This document shows, piece by piece, positions 27,643-47,786 of a stretch of DNA of 64,000 nucleotides; position 1 is the first letter of the stretch; every line of letters begins with the position of its first letter. Source of the DNA: an uncultured Actinomycetota bacterium (GTDB taxonomy: Bacteria > Actinomycetota > Actinomycetes > Propionibacteriales > Nocardioidaceae). The stretch covers positions 55,315 through 119,314 of the forward strand of contig CAWEHA010000003.1 in assembly GCA_963808855.1 (NCBI GenBank), in the 5' to 3' direction. The position numbers and the translations under genes are program-made. The notes beneath the pieces are model-generated. The model ran no database searches. It saw only the letters and a program-made list of their open reading frames with translations, and was not told the DNA's origin.

Positions 27643-27666
27643 CACCTGCCTGTGCGGAGAGTGCCC

Positions 27667-31330: not shown

Positions 31331-32497
31331 GTGACCCTCGGACCCCTCGACGGCGAGGCCCTGCATCTCACCGGCATCGGCCACCACGACCTCGGCGGCT
31401 TCGGCGACGGGATGCAGGTGCAGCGGGAGGGCGACGCGCTCTACGTCGGCCACTTCGGCCCGAGCGGCGCCGGCACCTCGATCCTCGACGCCTCCGACCC
31501 CACCGACCTGAAGCTCGTGACGCAGTGGATGTCGCCGGGCGGCAGCCACACCCACAAGGTGCAGGTGGCCGACGGCCTGCTGCTGGTGAACCACGAGCAG
31601 TTCCGCGGCGGTGACCCGTACAGCGCCGGCATGGCCGTCTACTCCCTCGCCGACCCGCTGCGCCCCGAGCAGATCGGCTGGTTCGACTCCACCGGCCGCG
31701 GCGTGCACCGGATCGTGTGGATGGGCGGCCGCTACGCCTACGTGTCGGCGATCCCGGAGGGGATGAACGACCGGATCTGGGTGATCGTCGACCTCGCCGA
31801 CCCAGCCAACCCGGTGGAGGCCGGGCGCTGGTGGTGGCCCGGCCAGCTCGAGGGCGAGGAGCCCACCTGGCCCGACGGCCTCCGCTACGCCGCCCACCAC
31901 GCCCTGCTCGACGGCGACACCGCCTACCTCGGCTACGGCGACGCCGGCATGGTCGTGCTCGACCTCTCCGACCCCACCGCCCCGCGCGAGCTCAGCACGA
32001 TCGGCTGGGAGCCCGGCGGCGACACCCACACCTGCCTGCCGCTGCCCGGCCGCGACCTCGTCGTCGTCACCGACGAGGTGGTCGACAGCTCCACCGAGGA
32101 GCACCTGGTGCGCGTCGTCGACGTCTCCGACCCCACCTCCCCGTTCGTGGTCTCGGCCTGCCCCCAGCCGCAGGGCGACTACGCCACCCGCGGCCTGCGC
32201 TTCGGCCCCCACAACACCCACGAGAACCGGCCGGGCAGCTACCGCAGCGCCGAGCTGGTGTTCGTCACCTACTTCAACGCCGGCCTGCGGGTCTACGACG
32301 TCGCCGACGCCGAGCAGCCGGTCGAGATCGCCCACTGGCTGCCGCCGGTGCCCGAGGGCCAGGTGGCCTGCCAGATCAACGACCTCTTCGTCACGGAGGA
32401 CTTCGACGTCTACGTGACGGACCGGGTCAACGGCGGGGTCTACGTCGTCCGCCCCGACGACGAGCTCGCCGAGCGGATGCGCGCGGCGTCGCTCTGA
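31331..32497 (+). CDS. LVIVD-repeat beta-propeller protein
   Basis: HTHKVQV, IWVIVDLADP, MVVLDLSDP, VRVVDVSDP, FGPHN, YFNAGLRVYDV. Confidence 0.85.
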   Translation: MTLGPLDGEALHLTGIGHHDLGGFGDGMQVQREGDALYVGHFGPSGAGTSILDASDPTDLKLVTQWMSPGGSHTHKVQVADGLLLVNHEQFRGGDPYSAGMAVYSLADPLRPEQIGWFDSTGRGVHRIVWMGGRYAYVSAIPEGMNDRIWVIVDLADPANPVEAGRWWWPGQLEGEEPTWPDGLRYAAHHALLDGDTAYLGYGDAGMVVLDLSDPTAPRELSTIGWEPGGDTHTCLPLPGRDLVVVTDEVVDSSTEEHLVRVVDVSDPTSPFVVSACPQPQGDYATRGLRFGPHNTHENRPGSYRSAELVFVTYFNAGLRVYDVADAEQPVEIAHWLPPVPEGQVACQINDLFVTEDFDVYVTDRVNGGVYVVRPDDELAERMRAASL

Positions 32498-32509: not shown

Positions 32510-32596
32510 GGTTTCGAGACAGGCGCTAGCGCGCCTTCCTCAACCACCGGAAAACCCCGGTGGTTGAGGAGGTTGCGCAGCAACCGTCTCGAAACC
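32510..32596. repeat. Inverted pair of REP-like units (BIME-like) between convergent genes
   Basis: GGTTTCGAGAC-hairpin-CCTCAACCACCGG / CCGGTGGTTGAGG-hairpin-GTCTCGAAACC. Confidence 0.85.
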
Positions 32597-32611: not shown

Positions 32612-32878
32612 CTACTCCGGGTCGCGCCCCAGCAGCGCCTGCACCGGCGTGGTGGGCGAGAGCATCTCGTCGGGGAAGACGATCTTGATGGCGTCGGCCG
32701 GGCAGGCCTGCTCGCACAGCCCGCAGTACCAGCACTCGTCGGGGTGCGCGATGACCGGCAGCTGCCGGGTGCGCGGCTGCTGCAGGATCACGTCGCCGGG
32801 GCAGACGAAGTCGCAGATCATGCAGCCGATGCAGGTCTCCGGGTCGATCTTGATCGGGTTGTGGACCGGTTCGGTCAT
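32612..32878 (-). CDS. 2x[4Fe-4S] ferredoxin (AprB-like)
   Basis: CIGCMICDFVCP and CWYCGLCEQACP; ATGA-coupled to upstream flavoprotein. Confidence 0.9.
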   Translation of the reverse strand: MTEPVHNPIKIDPETCIGCMICDFVCPGDVILQQPRTRQLPVIAHPDECWYCGLCEQACPADAIKIVFPDEMLSPTTPVQALLGRDPE

Positions 32879-34614
32879 GGGGTGGCTCCCGTCGGGGCGG
32901 CGTCGCGGACCTGCTCGACCAGGTAGTCGAATCCGACGGCACCATCGGGCCCGCGGCGCAGCACGATGGCCTTGCGCCAGTCGTCGGTGGTGTCGGGGTG
33001 GTCGAGCCGCCGGTGGGCGGCGCCCGACCGGCTCTCCGTGCGGTGCAGCGCCGCCTCGGTCATCAGCTCGGCGGCCAGCCGGATGCTGGTGCTCTCCAGC
33101 GTGCGCATCAGGTGGTGGAAGCTCGACGCGGACAGCCGCCGCTCGTCGTCGGCGAGCCGCGCCAGCACGCCGCGGGCGCGCTGCATCCCGGCGTCGGTGC
33201 GCCGCATGCCGACGTAGTCGGTGACGACGTCGCGCACCTGCTCCTCGAGGTCCTGCCACGCGAGGCCGGCGTCCTGCAGCGGCTCCGCCATCCGGGCCAG
33301 CGCCCGGGACAGCGAGGCGTGGTCGAGGCCCGGGTCGCCGTCGGTGGCCCGCACCCGGACGACGGCACCGCGCCCGGCGACCGCACCCATCGCGGCGGCG
33401 GCGGAGATGCCGCCGCTCACCATCGAGCAGTCACCGGCCGCGAAGAGCCCGGTCACGCTCGACTCTCCGGAGGTGTCGACGACGAGCCCGGAGCCGCGGA
33501 AGTAGGAGCCACCGCGCCGGATCGACATCTCGGAGATGCCGATGGGCAGCAGCTCGGTGCGGATGTCGAGGCCGCGCTGCTCGAAGTAGGACGGCAGTGT
33601 GTAGCGGTCGATGCCGAGGCTCTGCACGAAGTCGTCGAGCCGCTCCTTCGGCAGGTGGCGGATGTCGATGTAGATCGGCTCGTTGCCGGCGAGCACCTCC
33701 TCGATCACGGCGTTCACGAGCACGGTGCGCCGCGCCTTCTCCCCGAGCGGGTCGTAGCGGAACATGAACCGCTCGCCGTGCCTGTTGAGGAAGTGCGCAC
33801 CCTGGCCGGCGTAGGAGTTGGTGCCCTGGGTGGAGAAGCCGAGCGGCGTCAGCGTGGCCTCGACGAGCTCCATGTTCACCAGCGACGCACCGCTGCGGTA
33901 GGCCATCGCGTGGCCGTCGCCGGTGTTGTAGGGGAAGTGCCAGCTGTCGAACGGGAGCCCGGAGATGTTGCGGGAGATCCGGTTGATGTCGCCGGTGGCC
34001 ACGACGACCGCGGCGGCGCGCACCAGGTAGCGCTCGCCGGTGCGGCAGTTGAAGCCGACCGCTCCCACCACCCGCTCCCCGGACGGGTCGGTGACGAGGT
34101 CGGTCATCATCGTGCGCGGCAGGAACCGCGCGCCGTGCCCGACGGTGTAGCGGCCGAGCTGGTGCTTGAAGCGGCTGCCGTCGAAGTTGAGGTGGTACTC
34201 CCCCGGCAGCCCGAACGCGCGGGTGCGGAAGTAGCCGCCGGTCGTGGCGTCCTTGAAGTCGATGCCGATGTCGACCAGTCGCTGGAAGACCCGCGGCAGC
34301 TCGTGCACGGCCCGCTCGGCGACGTCGAGGTCGGTGAGCCCGTCGGTCAGCTTCGGCACGAAGGTCATGAGGTGCTGGGGGGTGTCCCACTCCTCGGTGC
34401 CGTTGAGGGGCGTCATGAACTGGTCGACGCCGCCGGCCACGCTCCCGGCCCGCTCGAGCAGCTTGGCCTTGTCGGCCACGAGCACCGAGACGCCGGCGTC
34501 GCGTGCCTCGATGGCGGCCAGGCAGCCCGCCACGCCGCCGCCGATCACCAGCACGTCGGTCTCGAGCCGGGTCACCTCGTCCGAGGGCCAGGCCAGCGGC
34601 TCGTCCGGCACCAC
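32875..34614 (-). CDS. FAD-dependent oxidoreductase, AprA/SdhA/NadB superfamily (AprA-like)
   Basis: IGGGVAG, NTGDGHAMAYRSGA, GLFAAGD, RTESRSG; no covalent-FAD His motif. Confidence 0.85.
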   Translation of the reverse strand: MVPDEPLAWPSDEVTRLETDVLVIGGGVAGCLAAIEARDAGVSVLVADKAKLLERAGSVAGGVDQFMTPLNGTEEWDTPQHLMTFVPKLTDGLTDLDVAERAVHELPRVFQRLVDIGIDFKDATTGGYFRTRAFGLPGEYHLNFDGSRFKHQLGRYTVGHGARFLPRTMMTDLVTDPSGERVVGAVGFNCRTGERYLVRAAAVVVATGDINRISRNISGLPFDSWHFPYNTGDGHAMAYRSGASLVNMELVEATLTPLGFSTQGTNSYAGQGAHFLNRHGERFMFRYDPLGEKARRTVLVNAVIEEVLAGNEPIYIDIRHLPKERLDDFVQSLGIDRYTLPSYFEQRGLDIRTELLPIGISEMSIRRGGSYFRGSGLVVDTSGESSVTGLFAAGDCSMVSGGISAAAAMGAVAGRGAVVRVRATDGDPGLDHASLSRALARMAEPLQDAGLAWQDLEEQVRDVVTDYVGMRRTDAGMQRARGVLARLADDERRLSASSFHHLMRTLESTSIRLAAELMTEAALHRTESRSGAAHRRLDHPDTTDDWRKAIVLRRGPDGAVGFDYLVEQVRDAAPTGATP

Positions 34615-34626
34615 GGGTCCCCTCTC

Positions 34627-34674
34627 TGCCAAACGTTTGGCATGACTCTAGGGTCGTGACCCGGCCGCCGTCAA
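34627..34674 (-). promoter_or_regulatory. Promoter TTGACG-18-TAGAGT with perfect LacI operator TGCCAAACGTTTGGCA
   Basis: Read directly; operator 34627-42 lies just downstream of the -10. Confidence 0.8.
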
Positions 34675-34695: not shown

Positions 34696-35760
34696 TCAGC
34701 CGGCCGCGGCCGGCGGCGCGGTCGACTCGCGCACCTGCAGCGTGGTCGGCAGCAGCACGCTCGACGGCGTGCTGCCGGGCGCGTCGAGCAACGCCAGGAG
34801 CAGCCGCGCCGCGTGGCGGCCGATCTCGTACTTCGGCACGTGGATGCTGGTGAGCGGCGGGTTGAACTCGTCGCACCAGCGCGAGCCGTTGTAGCCCACC
34901 ACCGACACGTCGTCGGGCACCTCGCGCCCGTGCGCCCGCAACGCCCGGTAGCAGCCGAGGGCGATGAGGTCGTTGGCCGCCACGATGGCCGTGAAGTCCG
35001 CGTCGCGCGCGAGCAGCTCCTCGGTGGCCACCGCGCCGTCGTCCTTGGTGAACCACGGCGCGAACACGATGAGGTCGTGGTCGACCTCGAGGCCGAGCGA
35101 CTGCATCCAGGCGAGGAAGTACTGGTAGCGGTTGAAGCCGGTGGACGCCGACATGGCGGCGCCCACGAAGGCGATGCGCCGGTGGCCGAGCCCGACGAGG
35201 TGCTTGACCGAGAGCCCGATGCCCTGGTGGTCGTCGCCGGCCACCACCGAGAGCCGGCTGTCGTCGACGGTGCGGTTCACCAGCACCACCGGGATGTCGG
35301 AGTCGGTGAGCGACTCGACGGACGGCGAGGACCGCAGTGCCGTCGCGACGACCAGCCCGTCGACGCGGCGGTCACGGAACACCTCGAGCAGGTTCTCCTC
35401 GCGGCCGGCGTCCTGGTCGGTGCTGCCGAGGATGATCGCGTAGCCGCGCTCGCGCAGGCTGTCCTCGAGCCCCCGCGCGATCGGCGGGAACAGCGGGTTG
35501 CCCAGGTCGGGCACCAGCATCCCGATGGTCATCGAGCGCTGCACCTTGAGACCCCGCGCGAACGGGTTGGCCCGGTAGCCGAGCGCGTCCGCCGTGGCGA
35601 GCACCCGCTTGACCGTCTCGGGCCGCACCCGGTGCCGCGCCTCGGGCCGCAGTGCCCGCGACACGGTCGAGACGTCGAGCTGGGCCGCCTGCGCGACCTC
35701 GCGCAGGGTGGGAGCCCGGCGCCGGGCGACCGGCTCGGGCGCGCTGCCGGCGTCGGTCAA
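34696..35760 (-). CDS. LacI family regulator
   Basis: PTLREVAQAAQLDVSTVSRAL, LGYRANPFARGL, PPLTSI; TTG start 35760. Confidence 0.93.
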   Translation of the reverse strand: MTDAGSAPEPVARRRAPTLREVAQAAQLDVSTVSRALRPEARHRVRPETVKRVLATADALGYRANPFARGLKVQRSMTIGMLVPDLGNPLFPPIARGLEDSLRERGYAIILGSTDQDAGREENLLEVFRDRRVDGLVVATALRSSPSVESLTDSDIPVVLVNRTVDDSRLSVVAGDDHQGIGLSVKHLVGLGHRRIAFVGAAMSASTGFNRYQYFLAWMQSLGLEVDHDLIVFAPWFTKDDGAVATEELLARDADFTAIVAANDLIALGCYRALRAHGREVPDDVSVVGYNGSRWCDEFNPPLTSIHVPKYEIGRHAARLLLALLDAPGSTPSSVLLPTTLQVRESTAPPAAAG

Positions 35761-35794: not shown

Positions 35795-35837
35795 TGGCAA
35801 TCGTGTGGATTCTGTGATCGTGCCCGATCACTGTCAA
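35795..35837 (-). promoter_or_regulatory. lacI promoter TTGACA-17-CAGAAT with operator-like TCCACACGATTGCCA
   Basis: Read directly (overlaps the end of the MFS region). Confidence 0.7.
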
Positions 35838-35845
35838 GCGGGGCC

Positions 35846-37021
35846 TCACGGCACGCCGTCCATCGGCACCGAGCGCGACGTGGCGGCCGCGCCGGCGAGC
35901 AGGACGGCGGTGAGCCACAGGACGCCGGCCGCACCGAGTCCGGCGGCCACCAGGCCGACGCTGCTGGGGATCACGACCTGGCCGAACCGGTTGCCCACCA
36001 GCCGCAGCGCCACGACGCGACCCTGCAGGCCGCGGGGCGCGATCTCGGCGAGCCAGGCCAGCGTCGCCGGCATGCACACCCCCAGCCCGAAGCCCATCAC
36101 CAGCACCGCGACGGCGACCAGCCAGAGCGGCACGGGCAGCGGCACGGTCGCCGTCGCCACCGCCGAGGCGCCGATGGTGACCGCGAGCAGCCGCCGGCGT
36201 CCGAGCCGCCGGGTGAGCGCACCGGTGGCCAGGCGCGACGCCATGGTGGCGACCGAGCGCGCCGCGAGCAGGGCGCCCACGGTGCCGACCGTCCACCCTT
36301 TCTCGGCGCCGAGCGCCGGCAGGTAGACCAGCGTGATGTCCATGGCCACGATCACGGCGCTGCTCACCACGAGCCCGCGGGCCATCCCAGGCGTGCGCAG
36401 CAGGCTGAGCACCCGCCGGTCGGGGGGATCGGCGACGGCGGCGCGGCGCGGCGTGCTGCGGCAGCACAACGCCAGCAGCAGCATCGCCACGGCTAGCAGC
36501 GCGGCAGCGCGGAACGCGTCCTCGGTGCGCGGCAGCGCCGCCCCGGCGCCGAAGAAGGCGAGGAGCCCCGGTCCCAGCGCCTGCCCGACGCTGCCCGCGA
36601 AGGTGTAGAAGCCGTAGGCGCTGTCGAGCTTCCCGGACGGCGCCAGCCCGGCCACCAGCGCCTGTTGCCCGACCATGCACAGCAGGTGGCCGGTGCCGAG
36701 CACCACCACAGCCAGCAGCAGCGTCGCGAACCGGTCGGCGGTGAACAGGAACAGCCCGATCGCCACAGCCACGAGCAGCGACCCCGCCACGACGAGCCGG
36801 GCCTGCCCGAACCGGTCGGCCAGGTCGCCGGCCGGGATGGCGACCAGCAGCGGCACCAGCGCGAAGCTCGCGCCGAGCACGCCGAACAGCGCCGTGGGCA
36901 CGTCGAGCTCGAGGGCGCGGTAGCTCGCCGTCGGGCGCAGCAGGAACGTGATCGTCTGGAACACCAGCGCGTGCCCGGCGACGACCACCAGGGCCCGGCG
37001 GGCGCGGGGCGGGGCCGTCAC
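35846..37021 (-). CDS. MFS transporter
   Basis: GDLADRFGQ and GALTRRLGRR motifs, about 12 TM segments; GTG overlaps upstream stop. Confidence 0.88.
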   Translation of the reverse strand: MTAPPRARRALVVVAGHALVFQTITFLLRPTASYRALELDVPTALFGVLGASFALVPLLVAIPAGDLADRFGQARLVVAGSLLVAVAIGLFLFTADRFATLLLAVVVLGTGHLLCMVGQQALVAGLAPSGKLDSAYGFYTFAGSVGQALGPGLLAFFGAGAALPRTEDAFRAAALLAVAMLLLALCCRSTPRRAAVADPPDRRVLSLLRTPGMARGLVVSSAVIVAMDITLVYLPALGAEKGWTVGTVGALLAARSVATMASRLATGALTRRLGRRRLLAVTIGASAVATATVPLPVPLWLVAVAVLVMGFGLGVCMPATLAWLAEIAPRGLQGRVVALRLVGNRFGQVVIPSSVGLVAAGLGAAGVLWLTAVLLAGAAATSRSVPMDGVP

Positions 37022-38031
37022 CGCTGGTGGCTCGGGAGCCGCGCCGCGTGCGTCCCGAGCAGCCGGCGCACGTTGTCGTCGGCCACGCGCTGCACCAGCG
37101 CGTCGTCGCCGGCCGCGCGCACCGTGCCGAGCGGGTCGGGGTCGCCCATCTCGAACGGGTGGTCGCTGCCCAGCACCACCTGGCCCGGCCCCACCACGCC
37201 GAGCAGGTGGCGCAGCGCGGCCGGGGAGTGCACCACGGTGTCGAACCAGAGCGAGCGCAGCAGCTCGCCGGGGGCGGTGCGCACCAGCGCCGCGGCACCG
37301 CGGGCGTCGCGGTGGAAGGCGTGGTCCCAGCGGCCCACCTGGTAGGGGGCGAAGCCGCCACCGTGCACGAACACCCAGCGCACGTCGGGATGCCGGTCGA
37401 CGACGCCGCCGAACACGAGGTGGCCGATCGCGATGGTGGTCTCGGCCGGGTTGCCCACCAGGTTGCCGAGGAAGTGACGTCGCACCTCCCGCCCGCGCAG
37501 CGACTCGTAGGGGTGCACGAGCAGCAGGCAGTCGAGCTCGCGTGCGGTCTGCCAGACCACCTCGTAGCCGTCGTCGTCGAGCTCGCGACCGGCCGGGCGG
37601 GTGGCGATCTCGGCGCCCACCATGCCGAGCTCGGTCACCGCGCGGCGCAGCTCGGCGGCGGCGGCCGCCGGGTCGCCGAGCGGCAGGTTGGCGAGGCCGA
37701 GCAGCCGCTCCGGCTCGGCGCGCACGACGTCGGCCAGCGCGTCGTTGTGCACCCGCGCGAAGTCGACGGCGGCCCCCGGCGCCACCGCGCTGGCGGCCAG
37801 GTTCATCCACGGTGAGAGGAGCTGCACGTCCACCCCGCTCGCGTCCATCGCGGCGATCCGGCCGGGCAGGTCGATCAGCCCCGGCGGCACCCGCATCGGC
37901 TCGCGGCCCTCGATCGTCACCTCCACCCGGTCAGCTCCGGGCCGCGCCGTGGCGCCGAGAGCGCCGGAGCCGGCCAGGGCGTCGAGGAAGGCGGCGGGGA
38001 CGCCATGGGCGTGGACGTCGACGGTGAGCAT
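37018..38031 (-). CDS. Amidohydrolase_2 family (ACMSD-like decarboxylase/hydrolase)
   Basis: DVHAH, MDASGVDVQLLS, LLVHP, HGGGF, GSDHPF. Confidence 0.88.
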   Translation of the reverse strand: MLTVDVHAHGVPAAFLDALAGSGALGATARPGADRVEVTIEGREPMRVPPGLIDLPGRIAAMDASGVDVQLLSPWMNLAASAVAPGAAVDFARVHNDALADVVRAEPERLLGLANLPLGDPAAAAAELRRAVTELGMVGAEIATRPAGRELDDDGYEVVWQTARELDCLLLVHPYESLRGREVRRHFLGNLVGNPAETTIAIGHLVFGGVVDRHPDVRWVFVHGGGFAPYQVGRWDHAFHRDARGAAALVRTAPGELLRSLWFDTVVHSPAALRHLLGVVGPGQVVLGSDHPFEMGDPDPLGTVRAAGDDALVQRVADDNVRRLLGTHAARLPSHQR

Positions 38032-38093: not shown

Positions 38094-38123
38094 TTGACCA
38101 TACAAACGATTGGCAGATACGTT
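38094..38123 (+). promoter_or_regulatory. Promoter TTGACC-18-TACGTT with operator TACAAACGATTGGCA in the spacer
   Basis: Read directly; divergent intergenic region. Confidence 0.75.
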
Positions 38124-38164
38124 CCAGCAGTCGGCCGAACCCCACCCACGTGCAGGAGGATGCG

Positions 38165-39154
38165 TTGAGCGCTCCGCTGGTCGCCGTCCTCGGCACCCGC
38201 TACCGCGACCTGGGGATCGAGGAGGAGGTGCTGGCCCGCTTCTCGCCGCGGATCGTCGCCGACCCCGCCGGGAGCGCCGAGGCGCTGCTGGCCGCGGCCG
38301 CCGAGGCCGACGTCGTGCTCGCGGGTTCGGCCCCGAAGTTCACCGCCGAGGTGCTCGAGGGCCTGCGCTGCCGCGGCGTCGTGCGCTACGGCGTCGGCAC
38401 CGACTCGGTCGACCTCGAGGCCGCCCGGCGGCTCGGCATCGGCGTGGCGCGGGTGTCCGACTACGGCACCGAGGCGGTCGCGTTCCACGCGGTGGCCACG
38501 GTGTGCGCGCTGCTGCGCCGCCTCACCGAGGCCGACCGGACGGTGCGCGAGGGGGGCTGGGGCTTCGCCGACCTCCGCCCGCTGCACCTGCCGAGCACAC
38601 TGACCGCCGGCGTCGTCGGCTTCGGCCGGATCGGCCGCCAGACCGCCACCTACCTCCAGGGCCTGGGCCTGTCGGTCTGCGCGTTCGACGAGTACGTCGA
38701 CGTGCCGGCCGACTCCGGCGTCCGCGCCGTCGACCTCGAGACTCTGCTGCGCACCAGCGACGTCGTCAGCCTCCACGCCCCCGGCAACGCCGACGGCTCC
38801 CCGCTGCTCGACGCCGCCGCGCTCGGCCTCATGAAGCCCGGCAGCCTGCTGGTCAACACCGCCCGCGGCTCACTCATCGACATGCCGGCGCTCGTCGAGG
38901 CGCTGCGCGCCGGAGCACCCGCCCGGGCCGCGCTCGACGTCTTCCCGCGCGAGCCCGTCGACGTCTCGGTGCTCGGCGACGTCGTCGACCGGGTGCTGCT
39001 CACGCCGCACATGTCCTGGTACACCGAGCAGTCCGAGGCGGACATGCGGCGCAAGGCCGCCGAGGAGGCAGCCCGGCTGCTGGCGGGCGAGCCGCTGCGC
39101 GACCCCGTCGTCGAGCCCGCCCGCCCCGCACCGACCGCCGAGGAGCCCGCATGA
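38165..39154 (+). CDS. D-isomer-specific 2-hydroxyacid dehydrogenase
   Basis: RYGVGTDSVD, GVVGFGRIG, SLHAP, LVNTARG, ALDVF..EP, TPHMSW; TTG after AGGAGG. Confidence 0.92.
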   Translation: MSAPLVAVLGTRYRDLGIEEEVLARFSPRIVADPAGSAEALLAAAAEADVVLAGSAPKFTAEVLEGLRCRGVVRYGVGTDSVDLEAARRLGIGVARVSDYGTEAVAFHAVATVCALLRRLTEADRTVREGGWGFADLRPLHLPSTLTAGVVGFGRIGRQTATYLQGLGLSVCAFDEYVDVPADSGVRAVDLETLLRTSDVVSLHAPGNADGSPLLDAAALGLMKPGSLLVNTARGSLIDMPALVEALRAGAPARAALDVFPREPVDVSVLGDVVDRVLLTPHMSWYTEQSEADMRRKAAEEAARLLAGEPLRDPVVEPARPAPTAEEPA

Positions 39155-39948
39155 CCCGCGACCTGGCCCGCATGACCAGCCCGGAGGCGCGGGAGGCGAT
39201 GGCCGCGTCCCGCACCGTCGTGCTGCCGATCGGCAGCATCGAGCAGCACGGCCCGCACCTGCCCAACGGCACCGACACGATGGCCGCCGAGCTCGTGGCC
39301 GCCGAGGTCGCCCGGCGCCTCGACGCCGTCTACGCGCCGTTCTGCCCCTACGGCGTCACGCCGATCCACGCCGGCCACCCCGGCACCGTGACGCTGCGCC
39401 GCTCCACGTTCGAGGCGCTGCTCGAGGACGTGCTCACCGAGCTGGTCGCCGCCGGCGCCGAGACCCTGATCCTGGTCAACTGGCACGAGGGCAACATCGC
39501 GTCGATGAACGCGGTGGCCACCGACATCCAGGAGCGGCACGACGTCACCCTGGTGGCGGCCCAGGCCTGCTACACCGCGCAGCGGCTCTACCGCGAGGAG
39601 GGCGGCGAGCTCACCCACGGCGGCGGCATCGAGACCCTCGCCGTGCTCGCGCTCGACCCGTCGCTGGTGAAGGCCGACCGCGCCGGCGAGCCGACCCGGC
39701 CGCCCGGGGCGCACGAGATGGACGCGATGCGCCGCTCGCCCGAGGTCTACGGCTTCATCACCGACGTCACCGAGCTCGCCGACGACGGCTGGTTCGGCAA
39801 CCCGCAGTGGGCCACCACCGACCGCGCCGGCAGCTTCACCGACGTCGTGGCCACCGGCGTGCTCGAAGGCATCGAGGTCGTCACGAACGCTCGCCGCATC
39901 CGCACCGAGAACCGGCTCAACCACCCCGAGAACGAGGAGAACGCATGA
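39151..39948 (+). CDS. Creatininase family amidohydrolase
   Basis: LPIGSIEQHGPHLPNGTD, VNWHEGN, THGGGIET. Confidence 0.92.
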   Translation: MTRDLARMTSPEAREAMAASRTVVLPIGSIEQHGPHLPNGTDTMAAELVAAEVARRLDAVYAPFCPYGVTPIHAGHPGTVTLRRSTFEALLEDVLTELVAAGAETLILVNWHEGNIASMNAVATDIQERHDVTLVAAQACYTAQRLYREEGGELTHGGGIETLAVLALDPSLVKADRAGEPTRPPGAHEMDAMRRSPEVYGFITDVTELADDGWFGNPQWATTDRAGSFTDVVATGVLEGIEVVTNARRIRTENRLNHPENEENA

Positions 39949-41012
39949 GTGACAAGGTCCGTCTGGCGTCGGTCGGTCTCGGCCGCTGGGCCCGGGTGCT
40001 CGGCCGGGGCGCCCAGCGCGGCGACCAGGTCGAGCTGTACAGCTGCTTCAGCCGCGACGCCGCCAAGCGCGAGGCCTTCCAGGAGGAGTTCGACGTGCCG
40101 AACGCCGCCTCCTCCTACGAGGAGCTGCTGGCCGACCCGGAGGTGGAGGGCGTCGTCATCACCACGCCCAACGACACCCACATGGACGTCGTCAGCCAGG
40201 CGCTGCGGGCCGGCAAGGCCGTCTACACCGACAAGCCGATCGCCCACACCCTCGAGGACGCCAACCAGATCGCCGCGGTGGTGGCCGAGACCGGCGGCGT
40301 GTTCGCCGTCGGGCACAGCTCGCGGCGGCTGTCGGGCCACCGCGAGATGAAGCGCTGGATCGACGACGGCCGGCTCGGCGAGGTGTCGCTGGCCGAGGCC
40401 AACTTCTCCAACGAGCGCGGCCTCGAGCTCACCCCGAACACCTGGCGCTGGTACGCCGACAAGAGCCCGGGCGGCGCGTTCATCCAGCTCGGCGTCCACC
40501 ACGCCGACACGCTCCAGTTCCTGCTCGGCCCGGTGAAGAGCGTGTCCGCGCACGCCCGCAAGCTCTACACCGAGGCCGAGGTGCCGGACGCGATCATGGC
40601 GGTGCTCGAGTTCGAGAGCGGCGCCCTCGGCTACATCGGCACCGGCTGGGCCTCCCCCGGCGTCTACACGATGAACCTGCTGGGCACGAAGGCCAACCTG
40701 ATGTACGACCTCGACTTCACGCACTGGGACGAGTCCCACCTCGCCGACGACTGGTCGACGCTCCGCTCGCAGTTCTACGGCGAGTCGGTGCGACAGAAGG
40801 TCGACCTCCCCCGCACCGACATGTTCCGCGAGCAGCTCGAGGAGTTCGGGCTCGCGGCCCGCGGCGAGGCGCAGGTGGAGGTCGGCGCCACCGAGGCGGT
40901 GCGCGCGCTGGCCGTCGTCCGCGCGGTGATCGAGTCGTCGGCACGCAACGGCGAGGCCGTCAGCCTCGACGAGGTCATCGACTCCGCGCAGGCCACCCCG
41001 GCCAACGCCTGA
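39945..41012 (+). CDS. Gfo/Idh/MocA oxidoreductase
   Basis: VGLGRWA, TTPNDTH, YTDKP, QLGVHHAD. Confidence 0.92.
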   Translation: MSDKVRLASVGLGRWARVLGRGAQRGDQVELYSCFSRDAAKREAFQEEFDVPNAASSYEELLADPEVEGVVITTPNDTHMDVVSQALRAGKAVYTDKPIAHTLEDANQIAAVVAETGGVFAVGHSSRRLSGHREMKRWIDDGRLGEVSLAEANFSNERGLELTPNTWRWYADKSPGGAFIQLGVHHADTLQFLLGPVKSVSAHARKLYTEAEVPDAIMAVLEFESGALGYIGTGWASPGVYTMNLLGTKANLMYDLDFTHWDESHLADDWSTLRSQFYGESVRQKVDLPRTDMFREQLEEFGLAARGEAQVEVGATEAVRALAVVRAVIESSARNGEAVSLDEVIDSAQATPANA

Positions 41013-41014
41013 CC

Positions 41015-41383
41015 GTGCCCGTCGTCCACGCCGCCGGCCTCGACTTCGCCCACCTGCCCGGGCGACGGTCGGCCGATCCGCTGACGGGCTCGTCGGCGGC
41101 CGAGAGCTACGCGGTCCGGGTGGTCCAGGTACCGCCCGGGCCGCGTACACCACATCGCCACCCCCACAGCGACGAGATCACCTACGTCGTCTCGGGACAC
41201 GGCAACGCGTGGGAGGACGACGTCCGCACCCCGGTGGGGCCGGGCGACGTCGTGATCGTGCCGCGCGACGTCCCGCACGCCACCGTCGCCCACGGCGACG
41301 ACGACCTCGTGCTCGTCTGCTTCTTCCCGGAGCCCGACCTGGCGAACAACCTGGTGGAGCTGGACGGCCCGCTCCGCGACTGA
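41015..41383 (+). CDS. Cupin domain protein
   Basis: PHRHPHSDEITYVVSG, GDVVIVPRDVPH. Confidence 0.88.
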   Translation: MPVVHAAGLDFAHLPGRRSADPLTGSSAAESYAVRVVQVPPGPRTPHRHPHSDEITYVVSGHGNAWEDDVRTPVGPGDVVIVPRDVPHATVAHGDDDLVLVCFFPEPDLANNLVELDGPLRD

Positions 41384-41473: not shown

Positions 41474-42259
41474 TCAGGTCATGGTGGTGGTGAGGGCGCC
41501 GAGGCCGTCGATCTCGACGGTGAGCACGTCGCCGGGCACGAGGAAGCGCGGGGGCGTCCGCGCCATGCCGACGCCGGGCGGGGTGCCGGTGACGAGCAGG
41601 TCGCCGGGCTCGAGCGTCATGGTCTCGGTGATGGTGGAGATGAGCTCGGCGACGCCGAACACCATCTGCGAGGTCGAGGAGTCCTGCACCACCTCGTCGT
41701 TGAGGGTGCACCGGATGCCGAGCGCCTGCGGGTCGGGCACCTCGTCGGCGGTGACGAGCCAGGGGCCGAGCGGCAGGAAGCCGTCGATCGCCTTGCCGCG
41801 GGTCCACTGCCCACCGCTGCGCTGGAGGTCGCGCGCGGACAGGTCGTTGGCGCAGGCGTAGCCGGCCACGTGGTCGAGCGCGTCGTCGGCCCGCACCCGG
41901 GTGGCGGTGCGCCCGATCACGACGGCGAGCTCGGCCTCCCAGTCCGCCTCGGCCGTGGCGGCCGGGATCGGCACGGTGGCGGCGTCGCCCACCACCGAGT
42001 TGGCGAACTTGCAGAAGAGCACCGGCTCGGTGGGCACCGGCTTGCCGGTCTCGGCCGCGTGGTCGCGGTAGTTGAGCCCGACGCACACGATCTTGCCCGG
42101 TCGCGGCACGGGCGCGGCCAGCGTGAGACCCGCAAGTGGCACCGGCTCGCCCTCCGCGACCGGCGCTCCCGCCAGGTACCCGACCAGGTCGTCCCCCATC
42201 GGGACGACGGCGTCACCCTCCAGCCGGCCGAAGCCGCCGGCGTACGACACGAGCCTCAT
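41474..42259 (-). CDS. Fumarylacetoacetate hydrolase family protein
   Basis: KIVCVGLNYRDH, DWEAELAVVIG, ANDLSARDLQ, WTRGK, TGTPPGVG. Confidence 0.93.
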   Translation of the reverse strand: MRLVSYAGGFGRLEGDAVVPMGDDLVGYLAGAPVAEGEPVPLAGLTLAAPVPRPGKIVCVGLNYRDHAAETGKPVPTEPVLFCKFANSVVGDAATVPIPAATAEADWEAELAVVIGRTATRVRADDALDHVAGYACANDLSARDLQRSGGQWTRGKAIDGFLPLGPWLVTADEVPDPQALGIRCTLNDEVVQDSSTSQMVFGVAELISTITETMTLEPGDLLVTGTPPGVGMARTPPRFLVPGDVLTVEIDGLGALTTTMT

Positions 42260-42341
42260 CAGCACCTCATGGGTCGAAGAGAGACCGACGGCCGGCCGTG
42301 GCCCCCCAAGGGCACGACCGGCCGCCGGCAGGGAGGGTCTG

Positions 42342-43370
42342 TCAGTCGATCTCGCCCGGCTCGACCTCGACGCCGAGCTTCTCCTGCACCTCGGTGAGGC
42401 AGGTGAAGTCGACGTGCTCACGCCAGTCGAAGCCCTCCGGCACGTTCTCGTTCGCGATCATGTCCTCGTTCCAGGATTCGAACGAGTCCTCGCTCGCGCC
42501 GGCCTCGATCGCGATCTGGGTGGCGAACTCGCCGGTCCAGTCCTCGATCTCGGCGTCGGTGGGCTCGATGTCCTGGGCTTCCTTGACGAGCTCGATCACC
42601 GCCTCGCGGTTGTCGATGTGCTCGTCACCGGCGCCCGCGTAGAGGTTCGACTCGATGCGGCCCTCGATGTAGCCGCACACGGCGTCCTTGTTGTCCTCGA
42701 GGAAGTCGGTGCGGACCACCCAGACCTCCTGAGGGGCCTCCACGAACTCCGTCTCGAACATCGTGCCGCCGGCCTCCTCGAGCGGCGCCTGGTGGCGCGG
42801 CTGCAGCTGCGCGACGTCGATCTGGCCGGCGAGGAGCGCCTGGAGCCGCTCGTCCGAACCGCCGTTGACCGGCACGAACTCCATGTCGTCGGGGTCGACG
42901 CCGCGGTTCTCGAGGATGTTCTTGGCCACCTGGATGTTGCGGTCGCCGGTGGCACCACCGGAGATCTTCAGGCCCTCGAGCTCGTCGGGGTCGACGCCCT
43001 CGCGGGCACCCATCCACCACGCCTCGGCGTCCTTGGCGACACCGACGACGGTCAGGTCGACGCTGCCCTCGGCGATGGCCGACCAGATCACGTCGCTCTC
43101 GCCCTGGGCGATCCACACGTCGCCGCCGATGAGACCAGCGAGGTACTCCGGCGACGCCGTGACCTCCGCGGGCTCGTCGAAGCCGAGCTCGGGCCAGTAC
43201 TTCTCGTCGGCCACGATCCACGACATCTGGTTCATGTAGTCGTCGCCGTCGTAGGACATCCGCACCTGGGTGACCTCGCCGCCGTCGCCGCCACCGTCGT
43301 CACCGCCGCACGCCGAGAGCAGGGCGCTGACCGCGCCCAGGCCGGCCACGACCGCCATTGCCTTCTTCAC
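42342..43370 (-). CDS. NitT/TauT-type ABC substrate-binding lipoprotein
   Basis: Lipobox LSAC; operon with two TauC-like permeases and an ATPase. Confidence 0.8.
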   Translation of the reverse strand: MKKAMAVVAGLGAVSALLSACGGDDGGGDGGEVTQVRMSYDGDDYMNQMSWIVADEKYWPELGFDEPAEVTASPEYLAGLIGGDVWIAQGESDVIWSAIAEGSVDLTVVGVAKDAEAWWMGAREGVDPDELEGLKISGGATGDRNIQVAKNILENRGVDPDDMEFVPVNGGSDERLQALLAGQIDVAQLQPRHQAPLEEAGGTMFETEFVEAPQEVWVVRTDFLEDNKDAVCGYIEGRIESNLYAGAGDEHIDNREAVIELVKEAQDIEPTDAEIEDWTGEFATQIAIEAGASEDSFESWNEDMIANENVPEGFDWREHVDFTCLTEVQEKLGVEVEPGEID

Positions 43371-43488
43371 AGTTCCTCCATTGGAATGCTTGTTCAGGAC
43401 CCGATCGGCCGGGTCTCCGTCCTGCTGTGGTGCCCGAGGGTCCGGTCGGTGGGGAGACGTCGTGCCGTCCGCCCGGACTTCTGGCTGG

Positions 43489-44349
43489 TCAGTCGACCAG
43501 CCGGCGTCCGACCATCACCTTCCTCTCGATCCACTGCGTCAGGCCCACCAGGAGCACGCAGAAGAGGACGAAGATGAGGAGCATCGAGTAGATGCGGGCG
43601 CTGTTGAAGTTCTTCTGGGCCAGCGTCATGATGTAGCCGATCCCGTTGACGCCGGTGAACACCTCGCCGATGAACAGGCCGAGGAGCCCGCGGGTGACGC
43701 CCATCCGCACCCCGATGGCGATGAACGGGACCGTCGAGGGCATCACGATCTTGGTGAACAGCTGCAGGCGCCCGGCGCCGAACGAGCGCCCCGCGGTGAG
43801 CAGGCTGTTGTCGACGGTCTTGACGCCCTCCATGATCACCACGAGCGTGGCCGGCACGGCCGAGAGCACGATGATCCAGATGCGGGCGGCGTCGTTGATG
43901 CCGACCCAGAGCAGCAGCAGCGGCATCAGCACGATGCGCGGCATCGTGTAGAGCGCCCACACATAAGTGCTCAGCGCCTTGTCGAGCCACGGGATGCCGC
44001 CGATGGCGAGACCCAGCGGGATGGCGACCGCGAGCGAGATCACCATGCCGATCGCGTAGATCGACAGGCTGATGCCGAGGTTGTTGAAGAGGATCCCCTG
44101 CTCGTGCATCTCGACGGTCTCGGCCCACACGTCGGTGACCGCCGGCAGGTACAGCGTCGGAACGCTGCCGTACTGGGCGACGAGCTCCCAGATCACGAGG
44201 AACGCGGTGAGGTTCAGGATCGAGATCACGATGCGCTGCCAGCGGTTGAAGCGGCGCCGCGACCGGAAGCGGGGTGCGCGGCGGCGGCGCATCGCGCCGG
44301 GCACGAGCGGACGGCGGCCGGGAGCCTCGGGCTGCAGGGTGGCGGCCAT
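43489..44349 (-). CDS. NitT/TauT-type ABC permease
   Basis: EGVKTVDNSLLTAGRSFGA, GIGY. Confidence 0.9.
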   Translation of the reverse strand: MAATLQPEAPGRRPLVPGAMRRRRAPRFRSRRRFNRWQRIVISILNLTAFLVIWELVAQYGSVPTLYLPAVTDVWAETVEMHEQGILFNNLGISLSIYAIGMVISLAVAIPLGLAIGGIPWLDKALSTYVWALYTMPRIVLMPLLLLWVGINDAARIWIIVLSAVPATLVVIMEGVKTVDNSLLTAGRSFGAGRLQLFTKIVMPSTVPFIAIGVRMGVTRGLLGLFIGEVFTGVNGIGYIMTLAQKNFNSARIYSMLLIFVLFCVLLVGLTQWIERKVMVGRRLVD

Positions 44350-45224
44350 CAGATCACCACCTCCTCACGCCAGCGGCTGGCCCACACCTCGAGGCGGCGC
44401 GAGGCCGTGACGAGGAAGAGGGCGATCGCGATGAGCAGGAGGATGAAGCCGAACATCCGCGCGGTGTCGTACATGCGGGCGGACTTGATGACCTCGCCAC
44501 CGATGCCGGCGGCACCGATGAGCAGCTCGACCGACAGCAGGCCGACGAAGCCGCGCGAGATCGCGTTGCGCACGCCGCTGGCGATGAACGGCATCGCCGC
44601 CGGAAAGACCACCTTGAGGAAGACCGCGGTCCTCCCACCGCCGAAGCACCGGGCGGCCCGGACGAGCGAGGCGTCGACGGTCTGCACGCCCTCCTTGCAG
44701 CTGAGGCAGAGCGGGATGGCCGCCGACAGCACGACCATGTAGACGCTGGTGGTGGTGCTGAACCCGGAGATCAGGATCAGCAGCGGCGCGAAGGCGATGT
44801 TGGGCAGCGCGAAGAAGCCCCACAGGTAGGGCGAGGTGATGAGGTCGATCGTCGGCGAGAGGCCGATGATCAGGCCCACGGGGATCGCCAGGAGCGAGAG
44901 CGCCATGCCGAGCGCCAGCGGGCCGGCGCTGTCCTGCACCGCCTGCCACACCGAGCCGTCCTCGACGGCGTCGGCGAACGCCGTGAAGACCGCGCCGGGC
45001 CCGGGCAGGATCAGCGGCTCGGGATCGGTGATCACCACGGCGAGCTGCCAGACCAGGAAGAACAGCGCCAGGCTGATGAAGGCGGGCAGCTGGCGACGCA
45101 CGGCCTTGCCCCACGACTTCTTGCGGGCGGGCCCGAGGTGGGAGCTCCCGCCGGACTGGTGTCCCCGCACCGTCACCTCCTCGCCGGCGGCGGTGCCGAT
45201 GCTCGGAGTGCTGGAGAAGCTCAT
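44349..45224 (-). CDS. NitT/TauT-type ABC permease
   Basis: EGVQTVDASLVRAARCFGG, GIGG. Confidence 0.9.
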   Translation of the reverse strand: MSFSSTPSIGTAAGEEVTVRGHQSGGSSHLGPARKKSWGKAVRRQLPAFISLALFFLVWQLAVVITDPEPLILPGPGAVFTAFADAVEDGSVWQAVQDSAGPLALGMALSLLAIPVGLIIGLSPTIDLITSPYLWGFFALPNIAFAPLLILISGFSTTTSVYMVVLSAAIPLCLSCKEGVQTVDASLVRAARCFGGGRTAVFLKVVFPAAMPFIASGVRNAISRGFVGLLSVELLIGAAGIGGEVIKSARMYDTARMFGFILLLIAIALFLVTASRRLEVWASRWREEVVI

Positions 45225-46126
45225 CGCAGCGCCTCGGGCGGTGCCGCTGACGGCTCGTTGACGATCGACGGCTCCTCGGGGACGGGCTCCCAGGTCGGCT
45301 CCTCGGCGGCCTTCTCGGCCTGCGGGCCGAGCAGCTCCCAGATCCGGTCGCGCAGGGCCTGGAACTCCGGCAGCTTGCGGCTCTCGCGGCTGCGGGGCCG
45401 CGGGATGCCGACCTCGAGGATCTCGCGGATCCGGCCGGGCCGGTTGGTGACCACCGCGATCCGGTCGGCCAGCGTGATCGCCTCGTCGACGCTGTGGGTG
45501 ATGAAGATGATGGCCTGTCCGGTCTCGGCGACGATGCGCGCGAGCTCGTCCTGCATCACCTCGCGGGTCATGGCGTCGACGGCGGCGAACGGCTCGTCCA
45601 TCAGCAGCAGCCGCGGCTCCGTGACGAGGGCGCGGGCCAGGCCGACGCGCTGCCGCATGCCGCCGGACAGCTCGCGCGGGTAGGCCTTCTCGAAGCCCTC
45701 GAGCCCGACGAGCTTGATGTAGTGCTGGACGAGGTCCTTGGTGGAGGAGTCGACCCGCTTCTGCATCTCGAGACCGAACCGGACGTTCTGCTCGGTGGTG
45801 CGCCACGGCATCAGCGCGTAGTCCTGGAACACGACCGCGCGGTCGGTGCCCGGGCCGGTGACCGGCGTGCCGAGCACCTCGATGGTGCCGTCGGACGGCG
45901 GCATGAGGCCGGCGACGACGTTGAGGAATGTGCTCTTGCCACAGCCGCTCGGGCCGACGACGGCGAGGAACTCACCCTGCGCCAGCTCGATGCTGAAGTC
46001 CCGCAGCGCGATCAGCGTGTCCTTCTCGCGGAGCCGGTCATAGGTGACGGCGACGCCGCGCGCCTCGACAGCGAGCGTCTGCGCGCCCAGTTCGCGTCCG
46101 GTGTCGGCCGGATCCCGGTGCTTCAT
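45221..46126 (-). CDS. NitT/TauT-type ABC ATPase
   Basis: GPSGCGKS, LSGGMRQR, LLMDEPF, FITHSVDEA. Confidence 0.95.
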   Translation of the reverse strand: MKHRDPADTGRELGAQTLAVEARGVAVTYDRLREKDTLIALRDFSIELAQGEFLAVVGPSGCGKSTFLNVVAGLMPPSDGTIEVLGTPVTGPGTDRAVVFQDYALMPWRTTEQNVRFGLEMQKRVDSSTKDLVQHYIKLVGLEGFEKAYPRELSGGMRQRVGLARALVTEPRLLLMDEPFAAVDAMTREVMQDELARIVAETGQAIIFITHSVDEAITLADRIAVVTNRPGRIREILEVGIPRPRSRESRKLPEFQALRDRIWELLGPQAEKAAEEPTWEPVPEEPSIVNEPSAAPPEALR

Positions 46127-46160
46127 GTCAGCCCTTCACTGCGGAGGTGAGGAACGCCAC

Positions 46161-46289
46161 TGCAATCGTTTGTGATCGAACTGCCCAGAATCATCGATGT
46201 CAAGCCCTTCGCACGGTGAAACTGAGGTTGTTTCCCTGTTGTGATCGTTTGCAGGACGCCGCGAGTACAAGTCCAATACAAACGTTGGA
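46161..46289 (-). promoter_or_regulatory. ABC operon promoter TTGACA-17-TTCGAT with three LacI-type boxes
   Basis: TGCAATCGTTTGTGA (46161), GTGATCGTTTGCA (46241), TACAAACGTTGGA (46277). Confidence 0.7.
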
Positions 46290-46344
46290 TGTTAATGTAA
46301 CCCAAGTCAGTAGGGATTGGCGGTCGATCCAGCGAGGCTCACAC

Positions 46345-47505: not shown

Positions 47506-47786
47506 CGGGCACTCCTCACGTTGTGGATGTGGACGTAGTCGCCGACGGCGATGTCGGCGCTGGCGATCGCGGTGCGGACGCCGTACTCGATGACGTCGTC
47601 GCCGCTCGCCACGTCGTGCAGGGCCACCTTGTGCCCGAGCGGGATCGAGGCGAGCACCTCCACCGTGACCGCGGTCGCGCCGTCGAGGAAACCGATCTGC
47701 GCGGAGCCGGGCTCCACGTCGCGCACGGCGACGGCGACGTGGTCACCGTCCTTGTGCGCCAAGAAGCTGGGGAGGGATTCCGACAT
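47484..47786 (-). CDS. suyA: Sulfolactate sulfo-lyase alpha subunit (SAF domain)
   Basis: FLAHKDGDHVAVAV, IPLGHKVAL, VIEYG, VHIHNVRSARW. Confidence 0.82.
   Translation of the reverse strand: MSESLPSFLAHKDGDHVAVAVRDVEPGSAQIGFLDGATAVTVEVLASIPLGHKVALHDVASGDDVIEYGVRTAIASADIAVGDYVHIHNVRSARWQNSVA

Follow-up and report, generated by a model that had tools for sequence, protein, structure and literature searches.

The window, a stretch of 64,000 nucleotides from an uncultured actinomycete of the Nocardioidaceae (contig CAWEHA010000003.1 of assembly GCA_963808855.1, positions 55,315 to 119,314), carries on its minus strand a flavoprotein gene and a ferredoxin gene that are hereafter called the pair. 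The flavoprotein (alpha subunit, 32875..34614) has a GTG start and 579 amino acids (aa) and is of the type that binds flavin adenine dinucleotide (FAD) non-covalently; the ferredoxin (beta subunit, 32612..32878) has 88 aa. The TGA of the flavoprotein gene overlaps the ATG of the ferredoxin gene (ccATGAcc), and through this ATGA overlap the ferredoxin is predicted to be translationally coupled to the flavoprotein. An alternative longer start of the flavoprotein, TTG at 34632, would fall inside an operator described below. Pfam assigns FAD_binding_2 (2.4e-41) and Succ_DH_flav_C (7.9e-11) to the flavoprotein, and Fer4 / Fer4_7 dicluster domains to the ferredoxin, a 2x[4Fe-4S] protein with the cluster motifs C16xxC19xxC22xxxC26P and C49-W50-Y51-C52xxC55xxxC59P, i.e. 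with a CWYC tryptophan, and without the tail of AprB. Where E. coli SdhA and FrdA have the covalent-FAD histidine (RSHT), the flavoprotein reads RAGSV and AprA reads RSGAV. No SdhB-type Fer2_3 domain or Sdh_cyt anchor occurs among 28 Pfam-scanned genes between 25985 and 48955 (30 called; 25168-25734 and 28814-29281 left out). An earlier note on this DNA had described an AprAB-like flavoprotein/ferredoxin architecture lacking an SdhB-type partner and a membrane anchor, and all of these features are found. In 56 of 56 related loci (Actinomycetota, Alpha- and Betaproteobacteria, Chloroflexi), the ferredoxin gene comes directly after that of the flavoprotein. Locus L058, from a long-read metagenome-assembled genome (MAG) in which the flavoprotein is frameshifted, was left aside. 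On sequence grounds the pair is a heterodimeric FAD + 2x[4Fe-4S] oxidoreductase with the architecture of AprAB and of the reductase for 3'-phosphoadenosine 5'-phosphosulfate (PAPS), belongs to a separate, uncharacterised clade and constitutes a new variant within the AprA-related flavoprotein superclade.

The best NCBIfam match of the flavoprotein is PRK08275 'putative oxidoreductase' (NF006131), of which it is not a member (295 bits, cut-off 587). Scores are likewise below the cut-offs for PRK06854 (AprAB-like PAPS reductase, 186 bits, cut-off 557), TIGR01812 (Sdh/Frd flavoprotein, 169 bits, cut-off 567), TIGR00551 (NadB, 123 bits, cut-off 453) and TIGR02061 (aprA, 93.1 bits, cut-off 641.75). 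A search of the whole genome with TIGR02061 yielded nothing above the cut-off.

For the comparison of active sites, the sequences of Archaeoglobus fulgidus AprA and of the APS-reductase-like PAPS reductase of Methanothermococcus thermolithotrophicus (MtPAPSR; APS, adenosine 5'-phosphosulfate) were rebuilt from PDB alignments and aligned (L-INS-i) with E. coli SdhA, FrdA and NadB. The roles of the AprA residues that bind the sulfate oxygens and clamp the adenine follow PMC2211403. Three of the four invariant active-site residues of AprA are lost in the flavoprotein: Asn74 is replaced by Met67, Arg265 is absent (Arg-free VEATLTP) and His398 is replaced by Tyr371. The only one retained is the equivalent of Trp-A234, W225, located in an insertion otherwise present in AprA and PAPS reductase only. 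The adenine clamp is lost as well, with L299 in place of Arg-A317 and Leu-A278 not retained. Within the AMP-binding set (AMP, adenosine monophosphate), to which Val273/Gly274 and His446 also belong, GTAL stands instead of VGLR and His446 aligns with a glycine. These losses hold in all 26 aligned members of the family, in which Asn-A74 corresponds to Met or Leu. R296, in the motif 'EKARRT', is the counterpart in the alignment of the catalytic acid/base arginines Sdh R286, Frd R287 and NadB R290 and does not vary among the 26 members, whereas AprA has a threonine at this position. Besides R296, the invariant residues of the family comprise W225, Y371, R366 and R373, and its conserved pocket is rich in arginine. 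The dicarboxylate residues of complex II (His232, His355 and Arg390, FrdA numbering) are not present in the alignment of the flavoprotein, nor is the substrate His/Arg set of NadB, and the motifs FHPT, HYxMGG and NRLGxNSL and the TEGxRGEGG hinge were not found in it.

In a tree of 132 representatives, drawn from a search of 1.84 billion proteins and calculated with FastTree only, the full AprA signature is confined to the AprA/PAPS-reductase clade. The family and one sister cluster form their own clade with 100% local support, and this clade and the AprA-signature clade are different branches of an 86-sequence superclade that excludes Sdh, Frd and NadB. Because the active-site residues and the adenine clamp are lost, the model scores lie below the cut-offs and the clade is separate, the pair is, judged by sequence, not an APS or PAPS reductase. 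The earlier note had proposed sulfite chemistry of the AprA type, and this part of it is not supported: the sulfate- and adenine-binding residues are replaced in every family member checked, and the flavoprotein lies outside the AprA/PAPS-reductase clade and shares its operons with organic-anion transporters. By the same note, a grouping with NadB or other oxidoreductases of carbon substrates would count against its idea; in the tree the flavoprotein joins neither the Sdh/Frd/NadB branch nor the AprA/PAPS-reductase clade. The AprA-related superclade comprises 284 clusters at 50% identity (E<1e-30) with many different active-site signatures, and appears to be large and mostly unexplored.

A further feature that bears on function is a predicted (2R)-sulfolactate sulfo-lyase, SuyAB, encoded on the minus strand at 46345..47786 (SuyB 46345-47505, SuyA 47484-47786). 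It shows the split SAF small subunit and UxaA-type large subunit of SuyAB together with orthology to a characterised sulfonate cluster: SuyB of the window is 58.9% identical to SuyB of the LacI-hpsN-hpsO-MFS-hpsP-suyAB cluster of Cupriavidus pinatubonensis, and 69% identical to a Rhodococcus copy beside FadR, aldehyde dehydrogenase, hydroxyacid dehydrogenase and Ldh_2 genes, while other UxaA-family proteins reach at most 40%. Of 30 genomes with the pair, 28 have a SuyB orthologue (57-95% identity); neither the pair nor SuyB was found in any of 60 searched relatives of the window genome (0/60), which are usable as a control and give no within-genus profile. In all eight actinobacterial carriers with a SuyB (nine searched) it lies 10-13 kb from the pair, and the ninth, a 3.8-Mb MAG, yielded no SuyB. 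Within one Burkholderiales clade SuyB occurs in 26/28 carriers versus 15/33 non-carriers, and therefore carriage of the pair implies SuyAB, not the reverse. A link to sulfur metabolism, as the earlier note had suspected, is supported by the identity to C. pinatubonensis SuyB and by these counts, and what survives of that note is a C-S or organosulfur transformation of an unknown substrate. The genome search for sat that it had suggested gave no match: Sat (PF01747) was not found in the 93.7%-complete genome, although control genomes give matches (the search did not extend to qmo, dsr and aprM). CysD, of the assimilatory type, is encoded on another contig.

In 12-13 of 18 proteobacterial carriers SuyAB belongs to a conserved cluster (L072-L089, e.g. 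L086:1873-10700 and L072:9000-18924) of a GntR/UTRA regulator, SuyA, SuyB, an SdhB-like protein, two Sdh_cyt anchors, split class-I fumarase subunits and an SdhA-like flavoprotein, which keeps the dicarboxylate site and has lost the covalent-FAD histidine. An Ldh_2 (ComC-like) gene or a lone TctC is also present; the latter may use the TctAB encoded in the operon of the pair. The cluster reads as a putative route from 3-sulfopropanoate via sulfoacrylate to sulfolactate. Homologues of the D-2-hydroxyacid dehydrogenase of the window (36-40% identity) adjoin SuyAB in four proteobacterial loci. The window genome possesses this dehydrogenase, and no Ldh_2/ComC was found in it; betaproteobacterial loci show the reverse.

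The genomic context of the pair differs between phyla. In Actinobacteria it travels with LacI, D-2-hydroxyacid dehydrogenase, creatininase-family hydrolase, Gfo/Idh/MocA, cupin, FAH and LVIVD genes, transporters and SuyAB. In Proteobacteria it resides in compact operons that also encode TctA/TctB/TctC (about 33 of 42 loci), often together with an AraC regulator. An LVIVD protein is encoded beside the pair in about 10 loci, and in L064:8762-9892 it leads an alphaproteobacterial operon, followed by flavoprotein, ferredoxin and TctABC. Neighbouring subfamilies (38-39% identity) combine a flavoprotein, a small ferredoxin and TctABC either with a LarA-type hydroxyacid racemase or with a thiamine diphosphate (ThDP) enzyme (L092:544-7336 and L093:467-10988); the ThDP-type locus also holds a second flavoprotein-ferredoxin pair. 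The wider clade may consist of ferredoxin-coupled 2-hydroxyacid dehydrogenases. A locus of the sister cluster (P0123) contains PrpD, aconitase-like and creatinase/M24 genes, with SuyAB not in view.

Two further gene associations concern the surroundings of the pair. A CbbQ/NirQ-type AAA+ protein and an 837-aa VWA protein are encoded directly after the ferredoxin gene in 14-16 betaproteobacterial loci (L069:12837-16349, L070:11350-14862, L071:12599-16105) and may serve as a MoxR-like maturation or remodelling pair for the flavoenzyme; RavA-ViaA of E. coli reportedly acts on fumarate reductase. Creatinase_N/Peptidase_M24 and FrsA-like/Peptidase_S9 hydrolase genes stand downstream of the pair in two distant loci (L065:384-21749, the P0123 locus, and L002:11214-19713), in L065 together with the PrpD and aconitase-like genes.

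In the window, a perfect 16-bp palindrome, TGCCAAACGTTTGGCA (34627..34642), is flanked by a TTGACG-N18-TAGAGT promoter-like element on one side and the ribosome-binding site of the flavoprotein gene on the other, and is the predicted operator of a LacI-family regulator encoded next to it (34696..35760, minus strand; beside the pair in 16 loci). Further copies are TCCACACGATTGCCA (35795..35809, minus strand) upstream of lacI, TACAAACGATTGGCA (38101..38115) in a divergent promoter region, and three copies (46160-46175, 46239-46253 and about 46277) within 46160..46290 upstream of the ABC (ATP-binding cassette) operon. The operator core CAAWCGWTTG has three perfect copies in the window versus 0.03 expected, all in promoter regions. 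With the motif at the promoters of the pair, lacI, the divergent operons and the ABC operon, LacI is predicted to tie the pair to the neighbouring catabolic genes and the ABC transporter.

The genes under these promoters are, on the minus strand, an MFS transporter (35846..37021) and an Amidohydro_2 enzyme of the ACMSD/LigW/LigJ type (37018..38031; human ACMSD E 1e-43), a type comprising decarboxylases or hydratases of unsaturated acids; on the plus strand, a D-isomer-specific 2-hydroxyacid dehydrogenase (38150..39154, accompanying the pair in 18 loci), which is a candidate for an SlcC-type sulfolactate/sulfopyruvate dehydrogenase, a creatininase-family hydrolase (39151..39948, 19 loci), a Gfo/Idh/MocA oxidoreductase (39945..41012, 21 loci, median identity 86%) and a small cupin protein (41015..41383, 16 loci); and again on the minus strand, a FAH-family hydrolase that resembles the 2,4-diketo-3-deoxy-acid hydrolases (41474..42265; NF053535 245 bits, cut-off 500) and a NitT/TauT-type ABC transporter of an SsuA/NMT1-like binding protein, two permeases and an ATPase (42342..46126). 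The TauABC-type transporter and suyAB had been described as adjacent to the pair, but are actually 7.7-13 kb off, with the LacI gene, the MFS/amidohydrolase operon and the divergent four-gene operon in between. The FAH match makes it attractive to consider a route for sulfoquinovose that follows the L-rhamnose diketo-hydrolase type and runs through dehydrogenase, lactonase, dehydratase, 4-dehydrogenase and FAH to pyruvate and sulfolactate. It was not adopted: the Amidohydro_2 protein is ACMSD-like, not lactonase-like, and no sugar-acid dehydratase is present except SuyAB. The Gfo/Idh/MocA gene was rejected as an NAD-dependent sulfoquinovosidase (GH188 SqgA), its best solved relatives being 3db2 and anhydrofructose reductases.

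On the other side of the pair, the gene for a cytoplasmic LVIVD-repeat beta-propeller without signal peptide (31331..32497, plus strand) converges on the ferredoxin gene. Between the two genes, a perfect inverted repeat of 13 bp (CCTCAACCACCGG ... CCGGTGGTTGAGG, 32538-32569) is nested in a second inverted repeat and resembles the hairpin of a bidirectional terminator that has no U-tract. Upstream of the LVIVD gene, an operon at 27661-31293 encodes a glyoxalase-fold protein, a GntR/FCD regulator, a small subunit and the large subunit of a molybdopterin hydroxylase; it is probably unrelated to the pair, because it is conserved in the closest relative (L015) only.

Gene context and co-occurrence point, with about even confidence, to the pair being an acceptor-linked dehydrogenase for a small sulfonated carboxylate that feeds SuyAB, the substrate being most likely 3-sulfolactate, otherwise 3-sulfopropanoate or cysteate. 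These three compounds are the sulfonate analogues of malate, succinate and aspartate, respectively. Sulfonate analogues of C4 dicarboxylates fit because organic-anion importers are co-operonic, the pocket is arginine-rich, an arginine of the Sdh/NadB type is retained and the carriers possess SuyAB. The substrate would be imported by TctABC, ABC or MFS transporters and oxidised, as first choice, from 3-sulfolactate to 3-sulfopyruvate, or else from 3-sulfopropanoate to sulfoacrylate or from cysteate to sulfopyruvate; the carbon skeleton would end at SuyAB and yield sulfite and pyruvate. In the flavoprotein, hydride would pass from the substrate to the flavin N5 with R296 as acid/base, while the arginines R130, R132, R366 and R373, which are specific to the family, together with Tyr371 would hold the carboxylate and sulfonate groups, and the electrons would reach an acceptor by way of Trp50 and the small subunit's two clusters. 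Acting through the palindrome at 34627-34642, the adjacent LacI would repress the pair and, with it, the neighbouring operons for catabolism and transport.

A 2-hydroxyacid substrate is hinted at by the LarA and ThDP contexts of the neighbouring subfamilies and by the D-2-hydroxyacid dehydrogenase genes found with the pair or SuyAB. The step from sulfolactate to sulfopyruvate is favoured because of these hints and because a putative 3-sulfopropanoate route already stands beside SuyAB in proteobacterial carriers; a route through sulfoacrylate and sulfolactate has been described in a thesis cited by PMC11489063. In a further reading, less likely than not, the family would be the first acceptor-linked 3-sulfolactate dehydrogenase of the FAD/Fe-S kind, within a wider clade of ferredoxin-coupled 2-hydroxyacid dehydrogenases. 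The pair was also considered as a replacement of the (S)-sulfolactate dehydrogenase SlcC, but strict complementarity is contradicted by D-2-hydroxyacid dehydrogenase genes that co-occur with the pair.

Several points weigh against a sulfonate dehydrogenase. The Sdh-like complex and fumarase-like enzyme beside SuyAB in betaproteobacterial carriers would make a 3-sulfopropanoate role of the pair redundant there. Many enzymes of the LacI regulon (Gfo/Idh/MocA, creatininase-like, cupin, ACMSD-like, FAH, LVIVD) have no place in a simple C3-sulfonate route, so the true substrate may be larger or different. The stereochemistry of sulfolactate suggested by the genes is conflicting, with a D-type dehydrogenase in the window genome versus Ldh_2 in Betaproteobacteria. 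The AlphaFold model has low confidence in the active-site loops; a search of RNA runs for the sequence of the pair found none, with only partial DNA matches in soil metagenomes; and the co-occurrence counts are not phylogenetically independent within single clades, although the pattern recurs in three phyla.

Among the alternatives, it is possible, if rather unlikely, that the pair acts on a sulfur-free carboxylate or N-heterocyclic acid, e.g. a tricarballylate-like or hydroxy-acid compound, and that SuyAB is linked to it incidentally or through a shared niche. TctABC transporters classically carry carboxylates, the locus of the sister clade P0123 has PrpD, aconitase-like and creatinase/M24 genes and no SuyAB is seen there, no sulfur genes are seen beside the LarA or ThDP enzymes of the neighbouring subfamilies, and the ACMSD-like, cupin, FAH and creatininase-like enzymes of the regulon are typical of ring and heterocycle catabolism. 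An incidental link is at odds, however, with a SuyB orthologue in 28/30 carriers of three phyla versus 0/60 relatives, with the 10-13 kb synteny kept in Actinobacteria and with the SsuA-like binding protein of the co-regulated ABC transporter.

An enzyme that handles the sulfite from SuyAB independently of AMP, either as a direct sulfite dehydrogenase or as a detoxifier via a flavin-sulfite adduct, would suit the arginine-rich conserved pocket, the descent of the flavoprotein from the AprA-related superclade and the finding that carriers of the pair can be expected to have SuyB. Such a role seems improbable, since the sulfite-polarising residues of AprA are lost, the strongly conserved large loops of the capping domain suggest a substrate larger than sulfite, and neither the specific association with SuyAB nor the TctABC operons are expected of a general sulfite detoxifier.

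Slighter still is the chance that the pair works in the reductive direction with reduced ferredoxin, converting sulfopyruvate to (R)-sulfolactate or sulfoacrylate to 3-sulfopropanoate, or cleaving C-S bonds reductively via a flavin N5-sulfite adduct. The window genome, lacking a ComC-type (R)-sulfolactate dehydrogenase, is missing an (R)-sulfolactate-forming step, and the closest characterised relatives, AprAB and PAPS reductase, are reductases fed through two clusters (PMC10322725). Yet betaproteobacterial carriers already have Ldh_2/ComC, and the flavoprotein lacks the residues by which AprA activates the sulfur centre. Moreover, low-potential electrons are rarely spent by the catabolism of aerobes. 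We regard it as very doubtful that the family keeps the ancestral flavin-N5/sulfite chemistry of AprA and applies it to a carbon-bound sulfonate as a redox-driven C-S bond enzyme; this would desulfonate sulfopyruvate or sulfoacrylate, or add sulfite to them, through a flavin-sulfite adduct, and would constitute a new mechanism of organosulfonate cleavage alongside SuyAB. Least credible is a true AprAB running in reverse, in which sulfite adds to the flavin N5 and AMP attacks the adduct to form APS, so that sulfite released by SuyAB is detoxified or oxidised: the AprAB-like architecture with non-covalent FAD, W225 in the insertion otherwise exclusive to AprA and PAPS reductase, the CWYC tryptophan of the ferredoxin, an APS-reductase-like PAPS reductase as closest solved relative and the co-occurrence with sulfite-producing SuyAB speak for it, but Asn-A74, Arg-A265, His-A398, Arg-A317, His-A446 and Leu-A278 are all lost in the family members checked, TIGR02061 (93 versus 642 bits) and PRK06854 (186 versus 557 bits) fall short, the flavoprotein is placed outside the AprA-signature clade, the genome has no Sat to use APS and the pair is co-operonic with organic-anion importers.

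Annotation pipelines label the family differently: many members are 'adenylylsulfate reductase subunit A' in JGI, NCBI uses 'FAD-binding protein', and 'succinate dehydrogenase/fumarate reductase flavoprotein' also occurs. The AprA and Sdh/Frd labels are wrong on the sequence criteria applied here. In metagenomes from soil and freshwater, members mislabelled in this way would give a false signal of dissimilatory sulfur metabolism and could inflate the counts of its genes. If the link to SuyAB reflects function, the family would be an unrecognised redox step in the breakdown of C3-sulfonates. Sulfoquinovose turnover and taurine-type turnover mainly yield these compounds (sulfolactate, 3-sulfopropanoate and cysteate), for which certain steps are without published enzymes. 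No route of 3-sulfopropanoate degradation has been reported according to PMC11489063. Three carriers of the pair are in culture (Nocardioides caldifontis YIM 730233, Mycolicibacterium agri CCUG 37673 and Propylenella binzhouense L72), so that the enzyme is open to direct testing.

Among known systems, the best solved relative of the pair is MtPAPSR (8a8o; E 8e-46 for the alpha and 5e-10 for the beta subunit), which belongs to the 'AprAB-like' paralogues of the DiSCo paper (PMC8477390, PMC10322725). It likewise has an alpha subunit of ~570 aa with non-covalent FAD and, like the present ferredoxin, a short, tail-less 2x[4Fe-4S] beta subunit, whose electron-path tryptophan has a candidate counterpart in Trp50. 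MtPAPSR is the best fold match to the flavoprotein (TM 0.77/0.80), in a fold search that does not discriminate, as MtPAPSR, FrdA and AprA all reach TM 0.75-0.80. In the structural alignment the two are only 22-24% identical, and they belong to different clades. MtPAPSR retains the catalytic Asn, Arg and His, which the flavoprotein lacks, and its gene context consists of sat, cysC and sulfite reductase, in contrast to the catabolic genes, anion importers and SuyAB of the pair. AprAB of A. fulgidus (1jnr/2fja) shares with the pair the superclade, the non-covalent FAD, the W234-containing insertion and a partner of the ferredoxin type; in AprB an electron-path tryptophan, Trp-B48, lies between the FAD and cluster I. 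Its candidate equivalent in the present ferredoxin is W50 of the motif C49-W50-Y51-C52, HMMER aligning residues 9-66 to 1jnr_B 3-64 as a range-level alignment. AprB has ~150 aa with a beta-sheet segment and a C-terminal tail, whereas the present beta subunit, with its 88 aa, is confined to the ferredoxin segment.

SdhA/FrdA and NadB have the fold (TM ~0.77 to FrdA) and the catalytic Arg in common with the flavoprotein, whose proposed chemistry, with hydride to N5 and Arg as acid/base, would be of their kind. SdhA and FrdA differ in the covalent-FAD histidine, the SdhB partner and the membrane anchor, while the flavoprotein pairs with a small dicluster ferredoxin. In a plasmid collection no orthologue of the pair was found, only paralogues of the PRK08275 type at ~30% identity. 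SlcC, SlcD and ComC reportedly interconvert sulfolactate and sulfopyruvate upstream of SuyAB in Chromohalobacter salexigens and Roseovarius nubinhibens (work of Denger, Cook and colleagues), and slcHFG-slcD of R. nubinhibens is said to join a TctABC-type importer to an acceptor-linked dehydrogenase. These enzymes belong to families unrelated to the pair (D-2-hydroxyacid dehydrogenase, FMN/lactate-dehydrogenase type and Ldh_2), and the likeness would be one of functional analogy only. The tricarballylate dehydrogenase TcuA/TcuB differs from the pair in a weak sequence match of TcuA (46 bits), which is without the C-terminal helical domain, and in TcuB being a membrane protein; it likewise combines an FAD_binding_2 flavoprotein with an iron-sulfur partner and a dedicated acid importer, and provides a one-step entry of an unusual acid into central metabolism.

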